A stretch of DNA of 64,000 nt from an uncultured Acidobacteriota bacterium (GCA_963723965.1 CAVRSV010000012.1:547544-611543), one strand, 5' to 3'. Numbered from the stretch's first letter, positions 3,417 through 55,712 are shown. Numbers and translations are program-made. Notes: generated by a model from the letters alone, not told the origin.

Positions 3417-3685
3417 AAACCCTCCCTTTGCAGGGGATCATAGCATTCCGGGAGGCCCCGCCTCATCAGTCCCAGGCCCTCCCTTGGCTGCGAAGTCCTA
3501 TCTGCGAGGACGTGTTGCAGCAACCTTCTCGAACTCCCCCGATGCTGCACAATATCTGTCGAGACTCGCTGAGCCGATCTCACGCCACGGCCGCTACGGT
3601 CTCCAAGAGCTCGGAACCCAGAGAAACCCGTTGCGTCCCTTGCGACCGCCCGTGAGACCCAGTCGCCGGAGGCGCCGCTTTGCGG

Positions 3686-3952
3686 TCAGTCAGCTCTTCC
3701 CTTACCAGCGTTGTGTCGAACCCAGGACGCGATCAGATGACCGAGCAGACCCATGAACGCAGCATAAACGAAAGTAGGGAGTAGCCAGCTCGTCAGGGTT
3801 TCGAGGAGAAACCACCAGTGGGTTCCCTCAGGACCGTGGAAGACGCCACTTGGGTTCTCCAGCCAATTCCACAGGGTCATGCCGATCGAGATCAGAGCGG
3901 ACACCAACACTCCAAACTTGAGGCCAAATCGGACGGACTTCATCGGGTTCAT
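3686..3952 (-). CDS. Small two-TM membrane protein (hypothetical)
   Basis: An internal ATG (MNPMKSVRFGLKFGVLVSALISIGMTLWNW...) gives an ~89 aa product with two hydrophobic helices. The start site is uncertain. Confidence 0.3.
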   Translation of the reverse strand: MNPMKSVRFGLKFGVLVSALISIGMTLWNWLENPSGVFHGPEGTHWWFLLETLTSWLLPTFVYAAFMGLLGHLIASWVRHNAGKGRAD

Positions 3953-4084
3953 GGCCAGACTATGATCGCACCCTTGTTCCGGGGATGAGAAGAGCTCGAG
4001 TGACGCCGAACGCTGGACGGTTTTCGCCGAGGTGTTCGATTCGGCGCGGCTCGGGCCCGCGTGGCTTAGCGATTCGCGGACAAG

Positions 4085-4171
4085 CGGGATCGGACTCTGC
4101 CCCACGACTGCCTGCACGTCCTGCCCGGCTCCGCCGGCTACGAGATGGACGCCGGCCTCTTCAAGAAATGA
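4085..4171 (+). pseudogene. Remnant (~35 codons) of a paralogue of the C-terminus of the beta-helix gene at 10173-11249
   Basis: In frame, 4085-4171 reads ...DRTLPHDCLHVLPGSAGYEMDAGLFKK*, against ...DQPLPHDYLQVLPGSAGYEMDAGLFKK* at 11163-11249. About 85% nucleotide identity continues for ~50 bp past the stop (to about 4215 versus about 11300). The frame is closed by a TAG ~35 codons upstream, so no intact gene exists here. Confidence 0.55.
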
Positions 4172-4241
4172 CCGTACCGTCCGCTCCCCGGCTCCGTGCC
4201 TGCCGTGGGGCGGGAATCCCGAATGAGTCGATTGGACTTGA

Positions 4242-4274
4242 AATTAGGAATAATCCTAATTAGGATAGTTCCTA
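4242..4274. promoter_or_regulatory. Two tandem TAGGA-N4-TCCTA inverted repeats (putative ArsR-family operator) overlapping the arsR-like start codon
   Basis: The sequence is aattaggaataatcctaattaggatagttcctATG. ArsR/SmtB repressors bind imperfect inverted repeats overlapping their own promoters. Confidence 0.5.
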
Positions 4275-4594
4275 TGAACTTGATCTTCAAAGCCCTGAGC
4301 CATCCGGCGCGGCGGCGGATCATCGCCATGCTGCAGAAGGGCCCACTCACTTCCGGTGAGATCGCGGCTGAGTTCGACATGGCGTGGCCTTCCGTCACCG
4401 GCCACCTGGCGGCGCTCAAAGAGGCGGACCTGGTCGAGACGGAGCGTCGCGGCAACACCGTACGCTATCGTCTCAACATCTCGGCCGCCGAGGAAGCAGT
4501 CGGCTTCCTGCTCGGCCTGATGCAGGCGGCAAGACCGGCGCGGCGGCCCGGCGAAACGCCTTCGAACAAACCCTTGAGGACTAAACCGGCATGA
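4274..4594 (+). CDS. ArsR/SmtB-family winged-helix transcriptional regulator (SdpR-like)
   Basis: The product is MNLIFKALSHPARRRIIAMLQKGPLTSGEIAAEFDMAWPSVTGHLAALKEADLV. This is the canonical ArsR HTH (ALSxPxRRxIL...GEIA...SQPxVSHHL-like). The ATG at 4274 was chosen over the upstream ORF start. Confidence 0.75.
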   Translation: MNLIFKALSHPARRRIIAMLQKGPLTSGEIAAEFDMAWPSVTGHLAALKEADLVETERRGNTVRYRLNISAAEEAVGFLLGLMQAARPARRPGETPSNKPLRTKPA

Positions 4595-5235
4595 CTGACA
4601 ACGAAAAGGGCGACTTCGATTTCCTGGAGAGAGCCGGCTTTGTACTGATGGCGCTCCAAATCGCCATTTTCGGCTACATGTGGGTGGCGGAAGGTCTCGA
4701 CCGAGCCTCGGACGGTTTTCCCATCTTTGTCGTGTGCACCGGAGTCTTCCTCGCGGGCCAGCGAAGGCTGGTCGTCAAGCCTCCCAATCGCGGTGCGGCG
4801 CGCTGGATCCTCGCCTCGCGCGCGGCGGTGCTGGCGTTCCTCACGCTCGGCACACTGGCAGTCGGTTTCCATCGCATCGTGCCCAGCACAGCCCCCGCGC
4901 CACAGTTTATACTCCGCGTCCTGTTCGCCCTGCTCTGGGTTGTCATCGCGCTCAAAGGGGCGGCCGTGGGCAAGCTGAAGCCGGGCAGCGCCATGGGCCT
5001 GTGCGTCTCCTGGACGAGACACAGCCGACTCGCCTGGGACCGGGCACATCGCACATTGGGGCGCATCTTGTTCTGGGGCGGGCTCATTGGATTGGCGACG
5101 AGTCTCATCGTCGCCCCGCTCACCTCGATGGCGATGTGGGCCGCCACCGTCGCCCTCGCCGTCGCGGCGGCGCTGATCGAAAGCTGGCGCACCTGGCGCG
5201 TCGATCCCGACCGTTCCAGCGGGCGCCCCGCTTGA
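4591..5235 (+). CDS. Six-TM membrane protein, SdpI/YhfL-like (partner of ArsR/SdpR-like regulator)
   Basis: The 214 aa ORF has six predicted hydrophobic helices. Its start overlaps the arsR-like stop (ATGA). The arrangement matches the SdpR-SdpI pair in Bacillus. Family assignment is by architecture only. Confidence 0.4.
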   Translation: MTDNEKGDFDFLERAGFVLMALQIAIFGYMWVAEGLDRASDGFPIFVVCTGVFLAGQRRLVVKPPNRGAARWILASRAAVLAFLTLGTLAVGFHRIVPSTAPAPQFILRVLFALLWVVIALKGAAVGKLKPGSAMGLCVSWTRHSRLAWDRAHRTLGRILFWGGLIGLATSLIVAPLTSMAMWAATVALAVAAALIESWRTWRVDPDRSSGRPA

Positions 5236-5395: not shown

Positions 5396-6374
5396 TCAAT
5401 TCTTTCCACCACCGCTTCGGATAATGCTGTCGTCTTCGCTCGGCAGAACCCACATCTCCGAGAGGAGCCACTCCCCGGCATCGCGAACGATCACCCACGT
5501 CGCACGAGCATAGCGGACGGGCAGGCGTTGATCCTCGGTCTGCTCGACGGCTGCACCCGTCGCGGTGATGTTAATCAGGGCCACGCCCGGCGTGATCATC
5601 CGAATCTCGTCGATGATGAAGATAGCGCGATAGGGCCGGGGCTGTGAGAAGTAGGTGCGCCACCAGTTCCGGATGGCTTCTCGGCCGTGCACCAAAGGTA
5701 CATTGCGGATCATGATGTCCGCTTCATCTCTGTAGAGTCCACTGACGGCAGACGGATCGCGGCTGTTCCACGCATCTTCGTACGCCGCCACGAATGCACG
5801 GATCTGAGGGCTGAGGGCTTCTGCCGCTTCGACGGATGCGTTCAGGACGACACGGTCTTCCTCTGTGGGGAATCCCCGCATGGCCGTGATGAGCCAGTCA
5901 CCGCTGCGTCGTTGCAGCAACCAGGTCCCGCGAAACTTCCGCGCAGGCAACTCCTGACCTGTGGAATCGTGACCACCGGTGGTCGTTGCGACATTCACAA
6001 TCGCGACATTCCCGTCGATGAGCTTCACCGTACTCACGTCAAGCGTCAGCCCTCGGTCGGGCTCCTGCCTTTCGAAGTACTCCTTCCACCATTCCCGGAT
6101 CGCCTGTCGTCCGCGCGCCTCGGGCAGGTTCCCCATCATCGAAGTCCGCATCCTCGGTGAAGAATGCGGCAAGAGCCGACGAATCGTGCGTGTTCCATGC
6201 CGTCCGATATGCTTCGACACGTGCACGAATTCCCGCGGAGTCGTCGACCTCCTGCGCCCTTGCCGCCACAGGCAGCGCGGCAGCGAGCAGGATGGCGGCA
6301 AGGGTTCTCGCGGCTACCCCTGCCAGCCCTGCAACCGTGAGCGTCGAGAATGGGCCGTCGGGCTTTCCGTTCAT
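5396..6374 (-). CDS. Secreted protein with two tandem SnoaL-like/DUF4440 (NTF2-fold) domains, interrupted by a frameshift near 6140
   Basis: The ORF 6039..6407 supplies a signal peptide and the N-half of domain 1 (...AYRTAWNTHDSSALAAFFTEDADF). The ORF 5396..6301, in another frame, continues (MMGNLPEARGRQAIREWW...) and contains a second full repeat (AYEDAWNSRDPSAVSGLYRDEADIMIRNVPLVHGREAIRNWW). The frame switch maps to gacttcgatgatgggg (a G4 run). Confidence 0.55.
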
Positions 6375-6556
6375 TTTCTGGTGTCTCCTCCCGAGGTAAG
6401 GCGGCACTCATGAGAATCGAGAGCCCACGCTCGCATGGCGTCGACACCAAGGGTTCTCAGATGCGCCTGCCGCCTGGTCTTACTTCCAGTGACACGCCGC
6501 CGATGCCGCTTCAATTCTCTTCCGTCGTTTGGCTGGGTAATTCTTCACGAGCCGGT

Positions 6557-6679
6557 CAACCATTGCATCCCGTGGAGGCTGCACCCTGGAGATCAAGCGG
6601 TGCGGTGGAACAAGAGTGTCCGAGCTTTTCCGGGCACGGCGCGGGATTTTCTCTAGATTGTCGCGCCTATCTACGGGAA
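6557..6679. repeat. Copy L of a ~120 bp diverged repeat flanking the low-GC island
   Basis: Copy L is caaccattgcatcccgtggagg...ggagatcaagcggtgcgg...attttctct...tctacgggaa. Copy R1 (9384-9502) is caaccatcgcatcccgtgcc...ggagaattatagggtgcgg...aattctctgg...tctacgggaa. The two share a 19/20 head and an exact 10-mer tail, with about 65-70% identity overall. Confidence 0.55.
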
Positions 6680-6954
6680 CACGCAAGGGCCAGGATCCGT
6701 AACGAGGCGGTGGAGAGGCGAGTAGATGTGGATGCAGGGCGCACGACGAGAAAGCCCCCGGCAGGCGTACACCATCCGTGCTACGAGCAGCCCGGGCTGC
6801 ATGTTCGTCCGTGGCGAACCGAAAGCGGCAGCAAGGCGCCGCACTCCAGAGTGACTCCGTCGCAGACGATCCCGACGTCCTCGGCAAGGGAGAAAGGGAC
6901 ACTCTTCAGTGTGGAGGTTGGACCAAGCTTTCGAGGGTGACCGAGGACAGGACC

Positions 6955-7143
6955 TCATGAGGAAAACAGTGTCCCCAACTCTCCGTCTGCAGAAAGATCC
7001 TCTGCATGCTGCGCGGCCTCGCAGGCCGCACCCATCTGGACCAGATCGCCCTTAGCGTGTCTGACTAGCTCGTTGGCATCATCAAATCTTCTCTTGTACT
7101 CACCAATCTGTTTCTGGCGACTTGCGACGGTAGTCAGGCACAC
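6955..7143 (-). CDS. Small ORF (62 aa) at the left edge of the low-GC island; coding status doubtful
   Basis: It has the same orientation as the island genes and a charged, coiled-coil-like sequence. No motif was found. Confidence 0.15.
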   Translation of the reverse strand: MCLTTVASRQKQIGEYKRRFDDANELVRHAKGDLVQMGAACEAAQHAEDLSADGELGTLFSS

Positions 7144-7197
7144 TGCCCAGCGGGGCCTCGATGGTTTTGTTGAGGAGGGCTTGCGGTTCCCCTTGTG

Positions 7198-8713
7198 CTA
7201 GTGCCTGAACACAGGGAGCCTTCTCAAGTCCTTATAGGCGACACGATCAGTCTGTCTGTTGAACAGATCAACACTCCGTGCTGCCCGGATCCCTGTATAG
7301 AAACCGTAGTCGAGAATGAGTCCGAGGTACTTACGGCCCACGTCACCAATTGTGATCCCTTCGTTGATTACGTGCAGCAGGCGCAGATCTACGAGTGTAC
7401 GGACGCTCTCATATGTTGGATCTTCTGTCTTGATCTCAACGAGGAACGCGTTACCCCGATGCTGCTTGACGCAGAAATCCCTGATGCTTTCGATTAGGGC
7501 TTGTAGCGGATGGGCTCTTCCAGATGCATCGGCTTCAAGTTCGCGCAGCTTCGCGTTGATGGTCTCAGATGCCGCAACGTTCACATTCGAAACCGACACT
7601 CGCTTCCGGTTAGCAAGCGTTGCCTTGGTGATTGCCTGGGAGAACAAATTCAGCGCATCCCGCGGCACTCCAGCAGCAACCCACGTTAATCTTGGAACAA
7701 CGTCTGCACTCGTACAGAGTCGCCGAACAGAAGGGAGACCGCAGTAGATCGCATGCGAATCAAGAATGGCCTCGATGTGCTGGGTGGCCTTGTCTGGCAT
7801 CGTCAGGTTGTAGTCGAGGGGAAGGATCTGCGCATCGTGTGGTATTTCCAGCCCCTGCCTGGTGCTGGATCGAATGTTCTAGTCAATGTCTCAATAGCCG
7901 ACAGCTTGAGGAAGAGTCGGTTCCCCCGGGATACGGCGTATAGCACGTCCAGCAGACGAGGCTGCAGAGACTCCGCTATGACGTGGAAATCGTCAAGGAA
8001 GATGAACAGCTCTTGGCCCGTCGATGCGAAATGGGACAGCAGACGGCGCAAGGCGGGAAGTTCCCTGCGTATCAATCCCTCGGTCAGATCGGGTCTCGTC
8101 AGTGTCGCCAGCGACGATGTGAATGCGGTATTGCAGCCAAAGAAAGAAGAGACTTGTTTCACGATGTCGGAGAGCACGTCCGCGATGACCGCGTCATCGT
8201 CACGCCGCGCGTAGACCTGCATATGGATCCAGACAGACGGCCGCGACTCCCTGTTGCGCGTGTGGAGAGCATAGAGCAAGAGGGTTGACTTCCCTGCCCC
8301 CCGTCGTCCGAAGACCACATGGTTGGACGCGGCCGTCACTTGTTCCTCCGCGCCGGCTACAGACTGTGTGTAGCGCGTAAGAAAATCCTCTTGGAAGCTG
8401 TACCGGTTGATGTTGAGGCTTTCGGATATAGTCTTCAGCAAGAGCTTACCTTCGGGCCCCCGCAGGACGTTCTCTCCTGGCTTCTTGACAAGTGTAACGA
8501 GCGGGGGGTCACGATAGGCCCCCCCGACTGAGGCACGAACCTGTTCCAACAGAGAAAATAGTCGATCGCTCGGATTCGCGATTTGTAGGACCAGGACGTC
8601 GCTCCCTTCCCTTTCCTAATCTCATAGGGCAGGCCCGCGAGTCCCGATTTCCGCTCAAACCGCTTGCGGACTTCGTCAAGTACGGCGTGGTCTCTAGTCA
8701 TTGATGGTCTCAC
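7198..8713 (-). CDS. Orc1/Cdc6-type AAA+ P-loop ATPase (~500 aa), split into three ORFs by two frameshifts at G runs
   Basis: ORFs 8435..8713, 7803..8549 and 7198..7800 tile one gene. Its N-terminus is an ATG coupled by ATGA to the upstream HEPN-like gene. Motifs are Walker A VVFGRRGAGKSTLLLYAL, Walker B LFIFLDDFH and a sensor-2/arginine-finger-like AAGVPRDALNLF, followed by a helical C-terminal domain. Frame switches coincide with a 7-G run (minus-strand sense; 8519-8525) and with gcagggg at about 7840. The local GC is about 50% against about 67% for the window. Confidence 0.55.
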
Positions 8714-9204
8714 ACATTCAGTCCTCGATCGTTGAGATACGTTGCCACATCGTCGAGGAAATCACGAACCAATTCAGCTGCCACCCGGGATCCCAGAGCC
8801 AAATCGCCAGCCGAGGAGAGGTGGTCATAATCGCAGGTGTTTCGATCTTCCCGCAGGATCGCGAGTTGGTTTATGTACCTGGATCGACTCGGAAAGTCGT
8901 TAGGAAGGTTCTCGAATTTCTGATGGTCTTTGACGTCTGTGGAATACTCTCCGTTGACATAGAGACGTAGGGCTCGCGCAGCATTGTATCCGGCGTAGTA
9001 CAACCGTGAAACTTTCTGTCTCCAGTTCGGAGCCGACTGTCGCGCGGCGAATCGGTAATGGGTGCGCGCTAGAACCATGAGAGCACGAGTATTGCCCTCT
9101 ATCTCCGATTCGATGAGGCCCAGAGCCGTAGCATCCAAGAGGCCAGACAGGTTGTCCTTCACTTTGCGGGGGTTTCCAAGATTTAGCAAGTGAGGAGTCT
9201 TCAT
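8710..9204 (-). CDS. Small (164 aa) hypothetical protein with HEPN-like R-x6-H motif, first gene of the island operon
   Basis: Candidate HEPN signature LAILREDRNTCDYDH (R-X6-H) sits in a helical ~160 aa protein. The stop TGA overlaps the ATG of the ATPase. The HEPN assignment rests on this motif alone and is tentative. Confidence 0.4.
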   Translation of the reverse strand: MKTPHLLNLGNPRKVKDNLSGLLDATALGLIESEIEGNTRALMVLARTHYRFAARQSAPNWRQKVSRLYYAGYNAARALRLYVNGEYSTDVKDHQKFENLPNDFPSRSRYINQLAILREDRNTCDYDHLSSAGDLALGSRVAAELVRDFLDDVATYLNDRGLNV

Positions 9205-9383
9205 CCCACTTCCATCTATCCGCGATTGGTTTCCTGGCGATTGAAGGCCTCAACCTCCCCAGTGTCGCGCGCCCAACTTCTGATCAAGTGGTTTCCAGAT
9301 AGTGCCACCACCTCGTGCTGCTCCTGATAACGGGTTGCGGGTGATTCCTCATGTGCGTTCTATCATCAGGCATCTGGATTCGC

Positions 9384-9502
9384 CAACCATCGCATCCCGT
9401 GCCAGATGCTCCATGGAGAATTATAGGGTGCGGGCTGACAAAAGAGGGGAAATTCTCTGGTCATTGAGTCGGATCTTCCTCCGTGTGTCGGGTCTACGGG
9501 AA
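9384..9502. repeat. Copy R1 of the ~120 bp island-flanking repeat
   Basis: See copy L. R1 lies ~180 bp upstream of the HEPN-like gene start (minus strand). Confidence 0.55.
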
Positions 9503-9778
9503 GATGCAGGCCGCTGGATCCCGCCGCAGTGGTCGAGGCAGCGCCTTTCGGACGCACATGGCGTGGCGACTCGCTGGCGCTCGCGTTCTGATGGCCTGCC
9601 CGAACCACCGCGCAGACAGAACGTGAGCGCCACCGAGCGTCACTCCCCGACCTCACGACAGGCTCACCTGGTCCACTGCGGCAAGGCCGGGGCGCATCTC
9701 CCCTTCTCAGTCGCGGTACCCGAAAATCTCGCACTCCCGCGTCCCGTTCTCCCTCCCTCCGTCCCGCTGCCCCGCTCG

Positions 9779-9900
9779 ACGACCATCGCGTCCCGTGGAG
9801 AATTCTGTTGGTAGATTATAGTGTGCGGCCTGATTGAATGGGCAAGTTTCTCCGGTCGTGACGGAGGATTCTCATCAACTTGTCGGGCCTTCCCGCGGCA
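9779..9900. repeat. Copy R2 (more diverged) of the island-flanking repeat
   Basis: The sequence gaccatcgcgtcccgtggagaattctgttggtagattatagtgtgcggcctga...gtttctccggtc...ttgtcgggcct aligns to R1 with gaps. It is followed by the CTCCCGTTCTCC motif. Confidence 0.45.
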
Positions 9901-10172
9901 GAATTGCGCCCACTCTCCTGCCGGCATCTTGTTCTCCCGTTCTCCCGCGTCCCTCACTCGCGCTCTGATTCCCAACCCGGCTCGCACCCCTTGTTCCTCT
10001 ACGCAGTTCAGCGCTTTACTTACTCGTTTCTGCCGAAGTAGACTCCTGTTGGCCAAAAGCCGATGTCTGTCCAACTGCCGCGATCGCCATGGACCGAGGC
10101 CCGGGCCGGGAATCGCGCCACTGGGGTATTTTCGCCGACCGCAGGGTCGGCACTGAACGAAGCGAGGTCCCG

Positions 10173-11249
10173 ATGAACATGAGGTCTCTCGTGACTCTCA
10201 CCTGCCTCACCTGCCTCACCTGCCTGGCCGCCGCCCCGGGCGGAGCGCCCCAGGGCAGCCCCGACGCCTCCGGATCCACCGCAGCGATCTACGTCGACTG
10301 CCGGTCAGGGGCGGACACCAACCCTGGCACCAGGGAGTCCCCTGTCCAGACCGTGGCCAGAGCCGCCGCGATCCTTCGCAGCCCGGACAACGCGATCTAC
10401 GTCATGCGGCTGAATCCAGGCATCCACGTCCTGCCACGACACGTGGAGCTCGCGACAGAGAAGAACATGGCCGGAAAGCGAATCGTGGTCGAGGCCTCCG
10501 TGCTGCCCGATGACTCCAAGTGGACGCCCGAATCCATGCCGATCGTGATCAGCAGCGCCGAGCTCGGCGACCTGGCGGCCGATTCGCCCAGCCTCGTCGT
10601 CGGGTTTCTGGTCAACGAGAGCCACGTGACGATCCGCGGCATCAAGTTCCACGGCTACCCGCGCCCCAACTCACGCTATTTCCCCATCGGTCGCTTCAAT
10701 GTGGCCAAGACCGATCTCCGTGTCGAGCAGTGCCTGTTCCTCGGAGACCCGAATGCCGCCCACCTTCAGGTCGGTGTCATCGGCCACGGCGACGGAATCC
10801 AGGTCGACCACTGTGTCTTCTACAACGTGAGGAACGCCGTCGTGTTCTGGCAAAGCAATCGCCCAAAGAGCGGCAACTCCCTCACCCACTGCATCATCTC
10901 GGGTGCTCGGCAGAGCGCGGTGTGGACGGCGTGGCCGGACCAGGACTTCACGTTCAAGAACAACATCGTGACCGGATGCAAATTCGTGTGGATCAAGAAC
11001 GGGGACAACACGTCCGAGTATTCGATCGAGGACAGCGTCGTCGTCGGCAACGAGTTCGAAATGGGCGTCTCCCGTAACGACACGGTGGCCCCCGAGGCAT
11101 TCGGGCTCCGTGAGAGCGGTGTCGTCAAGTCGGGGAAGGTCGCGCTGCGCCTGGTCGACCAGCTCGATCAGCCTCTGCCGCACGACTACCTGCAGGTCTT
11201 GCCCGGCTCCGCCGGCTACGAGATGGACGCCGGCCTCTTCAAGAAATGA
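10173..11249 (+). CDS. Secreted right-handed parallel beta-helix (pectate-lyase-fold) repeat protein
   Basis: ATG at 10173 gives MNMRSLVTLTCLTCLTCLAAAPGG, a signal peptide encoded by a cacctgcct x3 repeat. The body has repeated beta-helix rungs (IRGIKFHGY, VDHCVFYNV, NNIVTGCKFVW, SVVVGNEF). The last ~90 bp of this gene are duplicated as a remnant at 4085-4171. Confidence 0.6.
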   Translation: MNMRSLVTLTCLTCLTCLAAAPGGAPQGSPDASGSTAAIYVDCRSGADTNPGTRESPVQTVARAAAILRSPDNAIYVMRLNPGIHVLPRHVELATEKNMAGKRIVVEASVLPDDSKWTPESMPIVISSAELGDLAADSPSLVVGFLVNESHVTIRGIKFHGYPRPNSRYFPIGRFNVAKTDLRVEQCLFLGDPNAAHLQVGVIGHGDGIQVDHCVFYNVRNAVVFWQSNRPKSGNSLTHCIISGARQSAVWTAWPDQDFTFKNNIVTGCKFVWIKNGDNTSEYSIEDSVVVGNEFEMGVSRNDTVAPEAFGLRESGVVKSGKVALRLVDQLDQPLPHDYLQVLPGSAGYEMDAGLFKK

Positions 11250-11398
11250 CGGGATCGCCCGCTCCCCTGTCGACATGCCTGCCCTGGGGCGCGAATCCCG
11301 AATCCACGATTCCGAACCTCGAATGTCCGTGAAAGCGGTCGGCACGGCGCCCTTCGTTCGCCTGCGCCACGGGCCGGCCGGACTCCAGATACAGACCC

Positions 11399-11444: not shown

Positions 11445-11532
11445 TGGTGCCGGAGGCGGGATTTGAACCCGCACACCCTTTCGGGCGCCACCCCCTCAAG
11501 ATGGTGTGTCTGCCAAGTTCCACCACTCCGGC
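11445..11532 (-). tRNA. tRNA-Leu (anticodon GAG), 88 nt with long variable arm and encoded CCA
   Basis: The reverse-complement is GCCGGAG-TG-GTGG-AACTTGGCAGA-CAC-A-CCATC-TTGAGGG-GGTGG-CGCCCGAAAGGGTGT-GCGGG-TTCAAAT-CCCGC-CTCCGGC-A-CCA. It has a 7-bp acceptor stem, a GTTCAAATC T-loop, and an anticodon loop TT-GAG-GG with a 5-bp stem (one G.U). Confidence 0.8.
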
Positions 11533-54889: not shown

Positions 54890-55712
54890 CGTCTCTCCTC
54901 CCCTGCTCGAACCCGGCGGTCCACCGGTCTTTCTGATTCAGGTCCTGCTCGTTTGAGGGGCCGGTCCGGCCCTGTAGACAAACACCGCAAGTTACGTGGG
55001 ATCCCGCCTCCCACGCGACCGTGTGTCGAAGCCTCTACTCTATCGGATTTCAGACCACCACGCCACTGGGCGGACCGTTCCGAGTCCCGAGGTTTCGGGT
55101 TTCGGGGGCGCGTCGGCGAAAGGGCTGGGGCCTCCGATCGGTGTGTCCTCACTGGAGTGAGTTCTCGGCAGCTTGATCTCACGCCAAGCCGCCAAGTACG
55201 CAACGCCGCAAAGGAATTCTGTGTGGGCGGCGGCTTGGCGTACTCTGCGTCTTTGCGTGGAACCAACCCGCCGTGCATTCGCCTGCCTGCCAGCGTCCGA
55301 TCCGACAACGGCCCTTGCCATTCGGACAACCTGCCTTCGCCCTTCGCCCCTCTCCTCGCACTTCGCCCTTCGCACTTCGGCGTTGGGCCTTCGCCGTTCG
55401 GCCCGGAGAACGGGAGGGCGGGAGCGCGGGATGCCGCTCCGTATTTCAGAACCCGAACGAAGTGAGGCGCCCCGCGCCGGGCCCGGAGAACGGGAGGACG
55501 GGAGTCTCGCGAGGGGGGGTGGGAACCGCGTCAGAGCGATTCGGGCAACACGCCCCGGAAGTGCCAATTCGAAACCTCCCGTTTCCCGTTTCCCGGCTCC
55601 CGTCTCCCCCAGAACGCGGAACCCTTGCCACTTGGGCAACACGCCCCCGGGGATTCGGTCCCCCGGGGCGCCCGAGGGCGCCCCGGGCGCTTCACGTGCC
55701 GCAGGCCTTGTC
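54890..55712. repeat. 820-bp gene-free spacer dense in short tandem repeats
   Basis: There is no credible ORF in the spacer. It contains ggtttcgggtttcggggg (55091-55108), CTTCGCC-type heptamers (55333-55404) and a ~75-bp tandem duplication beginning gcccggagaacgggagg (55403 and 55479). It also contains gggcaacacgcccc x2, cgtttcccgtttcccggctcccgtctcccc and a GC palindrome (ggggcgcccgagggcgcccc) next to the comEA stop. Confidence 0.6.

Follow-up and report, generated by a model that had tools for sequence, protein, structure and literature searches.

Direct repeats placed around strain-variable DNA are known from several systems. Integrative elements carry an integrase gene inside, beside one attachment (att) site, and the empty site is attB. 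The attC sites of integrons carry two mutually complementary boxes, at the 5' end the inverse core RYYYAAC and at the 3' end the core GTTRRRY, and as a single strand they form a long imperfect hairpin; clusters of attC sites without an integrase are called CALIN. We compared these systems, together with dispersed short repeats and relic gene fragments, with a repeated element in a stretch of 64,000 nucleotides (nt) from an uncultured Acidobacteriota bacterium (GCA_963723965.1 CAVRSV010000012.1:547544-611543), the whole of which is referred to here as the window. The element occurs there three times (copies L, R1 and R2), always in the same direct orientation, around a broken two-gene insert, hereafter the cargo. 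The arrangement resembles attL/attR of genomic islands, including tandem islands, in that direct repeats with short near-identical blocks flank a low-GC, strain-variable cargo and a third copy lies beyond it. It also recalls attC/CALIN in being a same-orientation array without a nearby integrase, the array sites of that system being ~60-140 bp long and standing between variable units. Our preferred explanation, which we hold with a probability of only about 40%, is that a short orphan coding fragment was multiplied locally and left the three copies as old paralogous relics, in a spacer that is decaying and varies among strains.

We read the region 6200-10300 of the window directly. The 18-mer CAACCATYGCATCCCGTG is found at 6557, 9384 and 9780 with 0, 0 and 2 mismatches, respectively, against a chance expectation of 0.1, and a repeat finder placed the exact 10-mer TCTACGGGAA at 6670-6679 in L and at 9493-9502 in R1. 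Global identities are 68.0% for L-R1, 64.6% for L-R2 and 68.3% for R1-R2, with pairwise z scores of 8.2-9.7 against shuffled sequences, far above those of every other 121-nt segment of the window. A first-pass annotation of this DNA had placed three copies at these sites and put the blocks shared by L and R1 at about 65-70% identity; the placement is confirmed, all three copies being in direct orientation, and the similarity survives alignment with statistics. Its view of R2 as the more diverged copy is not borne out, the three copies being about equidistant. Of the limits that it gave for a unit of ~120 bp, the start at 6557/9384 and the shared 10-mer stand, but the local alignment of L and R1 runs on to a GGATCC (6557-6698 / 9384-9521) and also reaches ~5 nt further to the left, so that the unit measures ~140 bp, being ~20 nt longer at the right than first stated. 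The similarity of all copies begins and ends at common points, beyond which the sequences are unrelated, and this marks the element as a discrete unit. Invariant columns among the paralogs cluster modestly, 15 of the 18 columns of the block at the left end (block 1) being invariant (p = 0.015-0.03). Neither an nhmmer profile nor a covariance model run with filters off (next best match 10 bits) found a fourth copy in the 64-kb window, and no copy in inverted orientation was found there.

The substitutions that separate the copies follow a codon-like pattern. In the 3' half of the alignment of L, R1 and R2, the numbers of variable and invariant columns in the three phases are 9/8, 15/2 and 6/12 (p = 0.004), and a scanning-window permutation that corrects for the choice of window gave p = 0.005. 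An independent branch, formed by L and its ortholog in the related contig L124, shows the same tendency, with five of its six differences in this segment falling into that phase (p = 0.017). We then set up a coding frame with R2 as the reference and two 1-nt insertions or deletions (indels) removed. Variable columns are distributed over the three codon positions as 17/21/31 (p = 0.008); for the 3' half alone the counts are 7/10/18 (p = 0.002). This plus-strand frame turns all conserved blocks into conserved residues (.S.TIASRG.C..EI..CG......FSGH..GFS..CRA..R) and contains 10 codon columns with synonymous changes only, compared with 0 and 1 in the other plus-strand frames. The minus-strand frame that shares its wobble column (ARQ..ENP...PEKL..S..PH..I......PRDAMV) has eight such columns. 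No intact start-to-stop open reading frame (ORF) is conserved across the copies on either strand. In the plus-strand frame every copy contains a stop or a frameshift: R2 has a single TAG, in R1 there is a TGA along with an insertion of 1 nt and a deletion of 4 nt, and L and its L124 ortholog share a +1 indel, the latter lacking a start codon and, in addition, having an upstream in-frame TAG. The minus-strand frame is fully open in R2 and carries stops in L, the L124 ortholog and R1. These observations are suggestive, without amounting to proof, of an element that was coding once, at least in its 3' half, and now persists as disabled fragments. The unit of ~44 codons would have diverged for a time under protein-level constraint before it was disabled.

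Several points weigh against this explanation. The plus- and minus-strand frames score alike (BLOSUM means of 1.99 and 1.95), so that neither strand is favoured, the 5' half shows no periodicity (10/11/13), and a column-shuffle test of the synonymous-only columns reaches p = 0.027 only. The comparison involves just four independent sequences, and several of the tests were chosen after seeing the data. The peptides deduced from both strands match nothing in Pfam, NCBIfam, a six-frame translation of the window and related loci, or 1.84 billion representative proteins. The statement that the element is purely local is established for the 64-kb window alone, and the retention of one fragment three times with the same ends is hard to explain by random decay alone. 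Compared with pseudogenes and relic paralog fragments, the copies fit in their codon-periodic divergence, their stops and frameshifts, their pseudogene neighbours and the presence nearby of a duplicated gene end (4079-4224); they differ in that no parent gene was matched in databases and in that the same ~44-codon piece occurs thrice with the same ends. An ORF that continues from R2 to the beta-helix gene on the right was considered and rejected, as it lacks codon bias in comparison with L124 and is interrupted there.

We fetched related contigs through homologues of the neighbouring genes, namely the beta-helix gene (99, 88, 66 and 62% amino acid identity), the DUF4440 gene on the left (65-72%) and the cargo (96, 90 and 75%). 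The element was found only in the three closest contigs, L123, L124 and L130, and was absent from the loci of the distant homologues of the DUF4440 gene (65-72% amino acid identity) and the beta-helix gene (62-66%). In L123 (GCA_049282195.1) both flanks are 99% identical to the window and only R2 is retained; positions 5912-9773 of the window are missing and are replaced by a 16-nt filler, AGCCGGTCCTTCCGGA. The left breakpoint lies inside the DUF4440 gene and the right one 1-6 nt from the left edge of R2, which thereby stands upstream of the DUF4440 ORF, here truncated, at a distance of 47 nt. The difference is an imprecise deletion and not an excision between repeats. The first 8 nt of the filler (3870-3885 in L123) equal the 8 nt immediately left of L (6550-6557); this may be coincidence, or the filler may have been copied from a template, or L and R2 may once have been alleles of each other, and we set it aside because the window holds this GC-rich 8-mer 11 times. 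L130, a 3.3-kb contig from another sample, is 98.6% identical to window positions 6487-9773 and ends at 9773. As L130 and L123 both break at 9773, this junction is a real branch point at the population level.

L124 is more distant (84-88% identical) and contains the two-domain DUF4440 gene followed by an ortholog of L. Homology to the window falls off at the right edge of L (6698); then come ~110 nt that match 6873-6983 and 1140 nt of unrelated sequence, and homology returns at 10026, so that the cargo, R1 and R2 are all missing. The replacement segment holds a small ORF (3528-3686, MSFLKKLLFWRRSKPVQRVRICVECGMPVAEHKEWCSILRAMQSHRPQMGQ) that by eye shows a CxxC...C arrangement with a zinc-ribbon-type look. 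L and its L124 ortholog are 83.8% identical without gaps; by comparison, the third codon positions of three neighbouring genes are 77-81% identical and the adjacent non-coding DNA 61-77%, with gaps. The L130 version of L carries one 3-nt and one 1-nt indel. L is thus under weak constraint at most, evolving at a near-neutral rate and tolerating indels. Comparison of these haplotypes supports the view of the region as a hot spot of insertion and deletion. A check proposed in the first-pass annotation, whether island-free relatives carry the repeats in tandem, came out negative in these contigs: L124 has L only and L123 has R2 only.

Beyond these relatives, our DNA searches of genome, metagenome and viral collections were exact-pattern searches. 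A scan of genome contigs with the 16-mer ACCATYGCRTCCCGTG, which proved too unspecific as a query, returned at least 120 loci, and the matches listed are all seed-only chance hits. Metagenomes were scanned twice, with composite patterns matched by each of the five known variants, and yielded no match and 9 chance matches, respectively; a pattern scan of a viral collection yielded 18 chance matches only, and blastn against plasmids and phages found nothing. When the ORF spanning L was used as a phmmer query against the 1.84 billion representative proteins, only the corresponding ORF of L130 matched. Within the reach of these searches, the element occurs in a single species-level clade and at this locus only. 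Over 27 nt, AACCATCGCATCCCGTGCCAGATGCTC, R1 is exactly matched in an apparent oxidoreductase coding region of a Bradymonadaceae metagenome-assembled genome (MAG; JAQCND010000086.1, L035 2062-2088). This match is long for chance, nothing further around it is similar, and it is probably a chance match.

We weighed the relic explanation against readings in which the element has a regulatory function. On the minus strand, the DUF4440 gene (ATG at 6374) lies 183 nt downstream of L, and the first cargo gene, which encodes a protein of 164 amino acids, 180 nt downstream of R1; this agrees with the first-pass placement of L and R1 in the leaders of these genes, from which a portable promoter or leader had been suggested. 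The element could accordingly be a promoter or operator module of the divergent DUF4440/beta-helix region that was copied, with one copy now also driving the cargo operon. The minus strand holds all four TATAAT hexamers of the whole window, two of which fall at homologous sites in R1 (plus-strand positions 9420-9425) and R2 (9815-9820). Each of these two is overlapped, at a 1-nt offset, by a plus-strand hexamer with four of six consensus positions, which reproduces the reciprocal pairing of -11A and -7T described for the symmetric sigma-70 -10 elements of bidirectional promoters (PMC10268837). The position of R2 upstream of the truncated DUF4440 ORF in L123 and the conservation of block 1 beyond the expectation for uniform divergence (p = 0.015-0.03) point the same way. 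Unlike the described promoters, however, the arrangement is predicted from sequence, is present in two of the three copies only and is not a family-wide feature, and it comes with no -35 element: none was acceptable by eye, and a consensus scan for sigma-70 -35/-10 pairs at 16-18 nt spacing called nothing in any copy. The copies that truly precede a DUF4440 gene, L and its L124 ortholog, read CTTGAT and TCTGAT and lack the critical A2. The leaders that separate the element from the start codons show no relationship, and for this reason we treat the similarity of 183 and 180 nt as a coincidence. Conserved positions vary in a codon-like manner that neither promoter nor DNA-binding function predicts, and homologous genes in other genomes lack the element. 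R1 and R2 may contain a promoter by an accident of sequence, which is not what the family shares; we regard the regulatory reading as unlikely, and the suggestion of a portable promoter or leader as weak, a good -10 being present in R1 and R2 and not in L, which stands upstream of DUF4440 in two genomes. A structured non-coding RNA on the plus strand, either as tandem small RNA genes or as a cis-regulatory leader, is very improbable. The RNAalifold consensus is better on the plus than on the minus strand (-20.8 versus -9.2 kcal/mol), and with five sequences block 1 pairs with block 3 of the element through G-U wobbles, with more pairs retained than in shuffles (87.9% versus 81.5%) and seven pairs showing double-sided changes. 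This excess is circular, however, as the structure was derived from the same five sequences; the structure differs between the three- and five-sequence sets, and its energy does not improve on what column-shuffled alignments give (z = +0.3 for the plus strand, +2.5 for the minus strand). Among single sequences, L is alone in folding better than its shuffled versions (z = -2.9, compared with +0.4 for R1, -0.8 for R2 and +2.0 for the L124 ortholog), a scan found no terminator in the copies, and the codon-periodic variation counts against a non-coding RNA. Rfam, which had been proposed as a check for a structured RNA, matched a tRNA as the only hit in the window at gathering thresholds and, at E <= 10 over 6300-10200, two chance-level eukaryotic long non-coding RNA models only. 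Tested in four ways, a conserved RNA structure was rejected.

The alternatives that invoke recombination fare differently. The repeats might be att-type sites left where islets integrated site-specifically, one after another, at a single target, with each islet bringing a diverged copy of a gene end and crossing over within the 18-mer. The direct orientation, the near-identical block (17 of 18 positions) and the exact 10-mer would fit such a history, as would the variation among strains in the content between copies, the haplotype junction at 9773/9774 (L123 and L130) at the left edge of R2 together with the loss of L124 homology at the right edge of L, and the codon-like divergence, which is expected of xenologous gene-end copies. 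In contrast to characterized islands, however, no integrase or recombinase is encoded in or beside the array, no attP-like copy accompanies the cargo where it occurs elsewhere (L129, L131, L132), neither of the terminal copies adjoins an intact target gene (the ORF that continues from R2 being the one rejected above), and the similarity is diffuse (~66% over 140 bp), without a sharp identical core between unrelated arms. The empty-site comparison returned no precise single-copy attB in L123 or L124: the deletion in L123 begins inside the DUF4440 gene and not in a copy, and carries filler, and L124 has a different sequence of 1.1 kb after L. The occurrence of the cargo without the element, the lack of a recombinase and the lack of a precise empty site together rule out att sites of the cargo, and with them the initial proposal of duplicated attL/attR flanks; serial integration at one target we consider somewhat less probable than a regulatory function. 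The alternative initial proposal, insertion of the cargo into a pre-existing tandem array, survives in part. Copies that were already present fit better than an att duplication, but a simple tandem array is rejected by the spacers, since the sequences preceding and following the three copies are unrelated; in a test for a larger tandem unit, no flank homology was found except for the low-complexity motif CCCGTTCTCC on both sides of R2. The attC/CALIN comparison fails on the hallmarks of those sites. The best candidates for the 5' box are GGTCAAC in L and CGCCAAC in R1, with none in R2, and no copy has a GTT-containing 3' core; no imperfect hairpin forms, the z score of the minimum free energy being ~0 or positive in three of four copies (folded with RNA parameters), and the intervening genes are not promoterless cassettes that end at the site. 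A small non-autonomous mobile element hopping locally, whether MITE-like (miniature inverted-repeat transposable elements) or of an IS200/IS605 type without terminal repeats, would account for the sharp common boundaries and unrelated flanks of a discrete unit and for the position of R2 within a tract of GTTCTCCC-type 8-mer repeats, with similar sequence on both sides. The size class, the intergenic site and the sharp unit boundaries are indeed those of MITEs, Correia, ERIC and REP/BIME elements. Yet the element has no terminal inverted repeats or palindrome, the sole inverted pair being internal and 7-8 nt long (TCCCGTGG/CTACGGGA), and no strong hairpin. No target-site duplications are seen at L or R1, the shared flanks of R2 consist of the low-complexity 8-mer repeats only, and the 64 kb contain no inverted or further copy, with no transposase nearby. 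The metagenome, viral, plasmid and phage scans and the matches listed by the genome scan gave chance hits or none, so that no dispersed copies were detected in them. Local transposition appears quite improbable. Slightly less so, though improbable as well, is that the copies represent the conserved 5' head (~25-45 codons) of a tiny orphan gene family in which an unrelated, hypervariable tail follows, an arrangement like that of precursor-peptide or cassette systems with multiple copies, or the left-end recombination module of an integrase-free cassette hot spot. Either version would explain the sharp shared ends, the codon-like conservation, the direct orientation and the strain-wise swapping. 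The survival of three copies with the same ends keeps this reading and that of serial integration alive at low probability.

If the relic explanation is correct, the copies would have come to lie in direct orientation between the DUF4440 and beta-helix genes, in a spacer that also holds pseudogenes, insertions and deletions. All three would have been in place before the lineages of the window and L124 split; the divergence among paralogs (32-35%) is about 1.5-2 times that between the orthologs. The cargo, comprising the 164-amino-acid protein and an ATPase resembling ORC/Cdc6, would have arrived separately, between copies already present; in the window lineage it was probably inserted between L and R1 and then decayed, in the L124 lineage the part with R1 and R2 was probably replaced by other DNA, and in the L123 lineage 5912-9773 was probably deleted. 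The copies would thus be neither att sites nor a part of the cargo. They would have no demonstrable present role, with two possible exceptions, namely the consensus -10 hexamer of R1 and R2, which points toward the cargo and DUF4440 genes, and their marking, as direct repeats and islands of similarity, of the places where haplotypes differ. Scars of decay that accord with a relic origin are the frameshifted DUF4440 gene, the broken ATPase gene and a 146-bp duplicate of the end of the beta-helix gene at 4079-4224. We view the feature as real but ordinary, a lineage-specific repeat of probable gene-fragment origin.

Features of the locus around the three element copies (window coordinates unless a related contig is named)
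Feature	Position	Strand	Remarks
ArsR-family regulator	4196-4594	+	
SdpI-like membrane protein	4591-5235	+	
Two-domain DUF4440/SnoaL-like gene	5396-6374	-	apparent frameshift; left border of variable spacer
Copy L	6557-6698	+	covariance model 162 bits; ortholog in L124 at 2289-2430
L-cargo spacer	6699-7156		6873-6983 common to L124 (73%); remainder unique
Cargo module	7157-9255	-	88% nt identical to L129 612-2707
ORC/Cdc6-like AAA ATPase, three pieces	8435-8713, 7803-8549, 7198-7800	-	one frameshift, one in-frame stop
164-amino-acid protein gene	8710-9204	-	first cargo gene
Cargo-R1 spacer	9256-9383		outside cargo homology block; unrelated to leader left of L
Copy R1	9384-9521	+	covariance model 120 bits; most damaged copy; identical in L130
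R1-R2 spacer	9522-9779		hairpin 9570-9637; CCCGTTCTCC low-complexity at right end
Copy R2	9780-~9900	+	covariance model 113 bits; sole copy kept in L123 (3892-4028)
Codon-periodic segment	L 6614-6665, R1 9441-9492, R2 9836-9887	+	L frame E-C-P-S-F-S-G-H-G-A-G-F-S-L-D-C-R
Secreted beta-helix protein gene	10173-11249	+	right border of variable spacer
tRNA-Leu(gag), then secG-tpiA-pgk	11445-11532 onward	-	

The GC content is 0.52-0.59 across ~7000-9400, and the nearest database proteins come from Acidobacteriota MAGs. Contrary to the first proposal, the low-GC cargo stops short of both L and R1, its homology block leaving 458 and 128 nt of unrelated spacer on the two sides. In L129 the ATPase gene is intact (506 amino acids) and follows the 164-amino-acid gene among different neighbours and without a copy of the element; the more distant cargo copies in L131 and L132 likewise lack it. 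Pfam and PADLOC found no recombinase or integrase domain in the ORFs between and around the element copies, the only domains being AAA_16 and ORC-CDC6-like, and the 164-amino-acid protein has no match in Pfam, NCBIfam or PADLOC. This protein has 128 homologues at E <= 0.001. In the three contigs examined (L129, L131 and one represented without DNA), its gene is directly followed by a gene for a protein of 409-506 amino acids, which in two of the three is annotated as an ORC-CDC6-like / Sll1717-like P-loop ATPase. By eye, RNTCDYDH in the 164-amino-acid protein forms an Rx6H motif resembling that of HEPN domains. The conserved two-gene module is a candidate defence system.

Several further observations concern the surroundings of the array. 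The DUF4440/SnoaL gene consists of two overlapping minus-strand ORFs in different frames (6039-6407 and 5396-6301); its homologue is intact at 325 amino acids in L124, and a homologue of 247 amino acids (P0249) fits the apparent frameshift. The double ORF is due to a sequencing error or else marks a frameshifted pseudogene. The 146-bp duplication is a second, younger direct repeat (4079-4224 / 11157-11303; 82-88% identity, 7078 bp apart), whose left copy corresponds to the final ~90 nt of the beta-helix gene and ~55 nt downstream. The pair encloses the ArsR, SdpI and DUF4440 genes, the element array and the beta-helix gene, with tRNA-Leu(gag) just beyond; L124 lacks both the left copy and the ArsR-SdpI genes, and the repeat may be the scar of a larger duplication or insertion. 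The hairpin in the R1-R2 spacer has 21-nt arms with 90% complementarity and a 26-nt loop, and no U-tract on either strand. Intergenic tandem repeats of 7-9 nt are frequent in this genome (CTCCCGTT/GTTCTCCC, GAGATTT, GTTCCTG, CCTTCGC and CTGTCCTAT), at sites including 1860-1902, 9736-9760, 9921-9947 and 55405-55608, and those on both sides of R2 are of the CCCGTTCTCC type. Directly upstream of the beta-helix start, ~50 nt (10120-10172; 3900-3953 in L124) are much better conserved between the window and L124 than the remainder of the leader and hold a short hairpin (CCGAC-CGCAGG-GTCGG); this segment may be a translational or leader element.

If the copies are relics of a coding fragment, they matter little in themselves. 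They would show a spacer between two core genes of an uncultured Acidobacteriota lineage in the act of gaining and losing DNA, a spacer that gathers a defence-like two-gene module, duplicated gene ends and the relics of gene fragments. They would also illustrate that an insert of low GC content can be flanked by direct repeats which are not att sites. More useful is the lesson in method, namely that codon periodicity among diverged repeats taken for non-coding can tell gene-fragment relics from regulatory or RNA elements where homologues are lacking. Should the copies instead be the conserved head of an exchangeable unit, they would represent an unrecognised way of organising variable loci.

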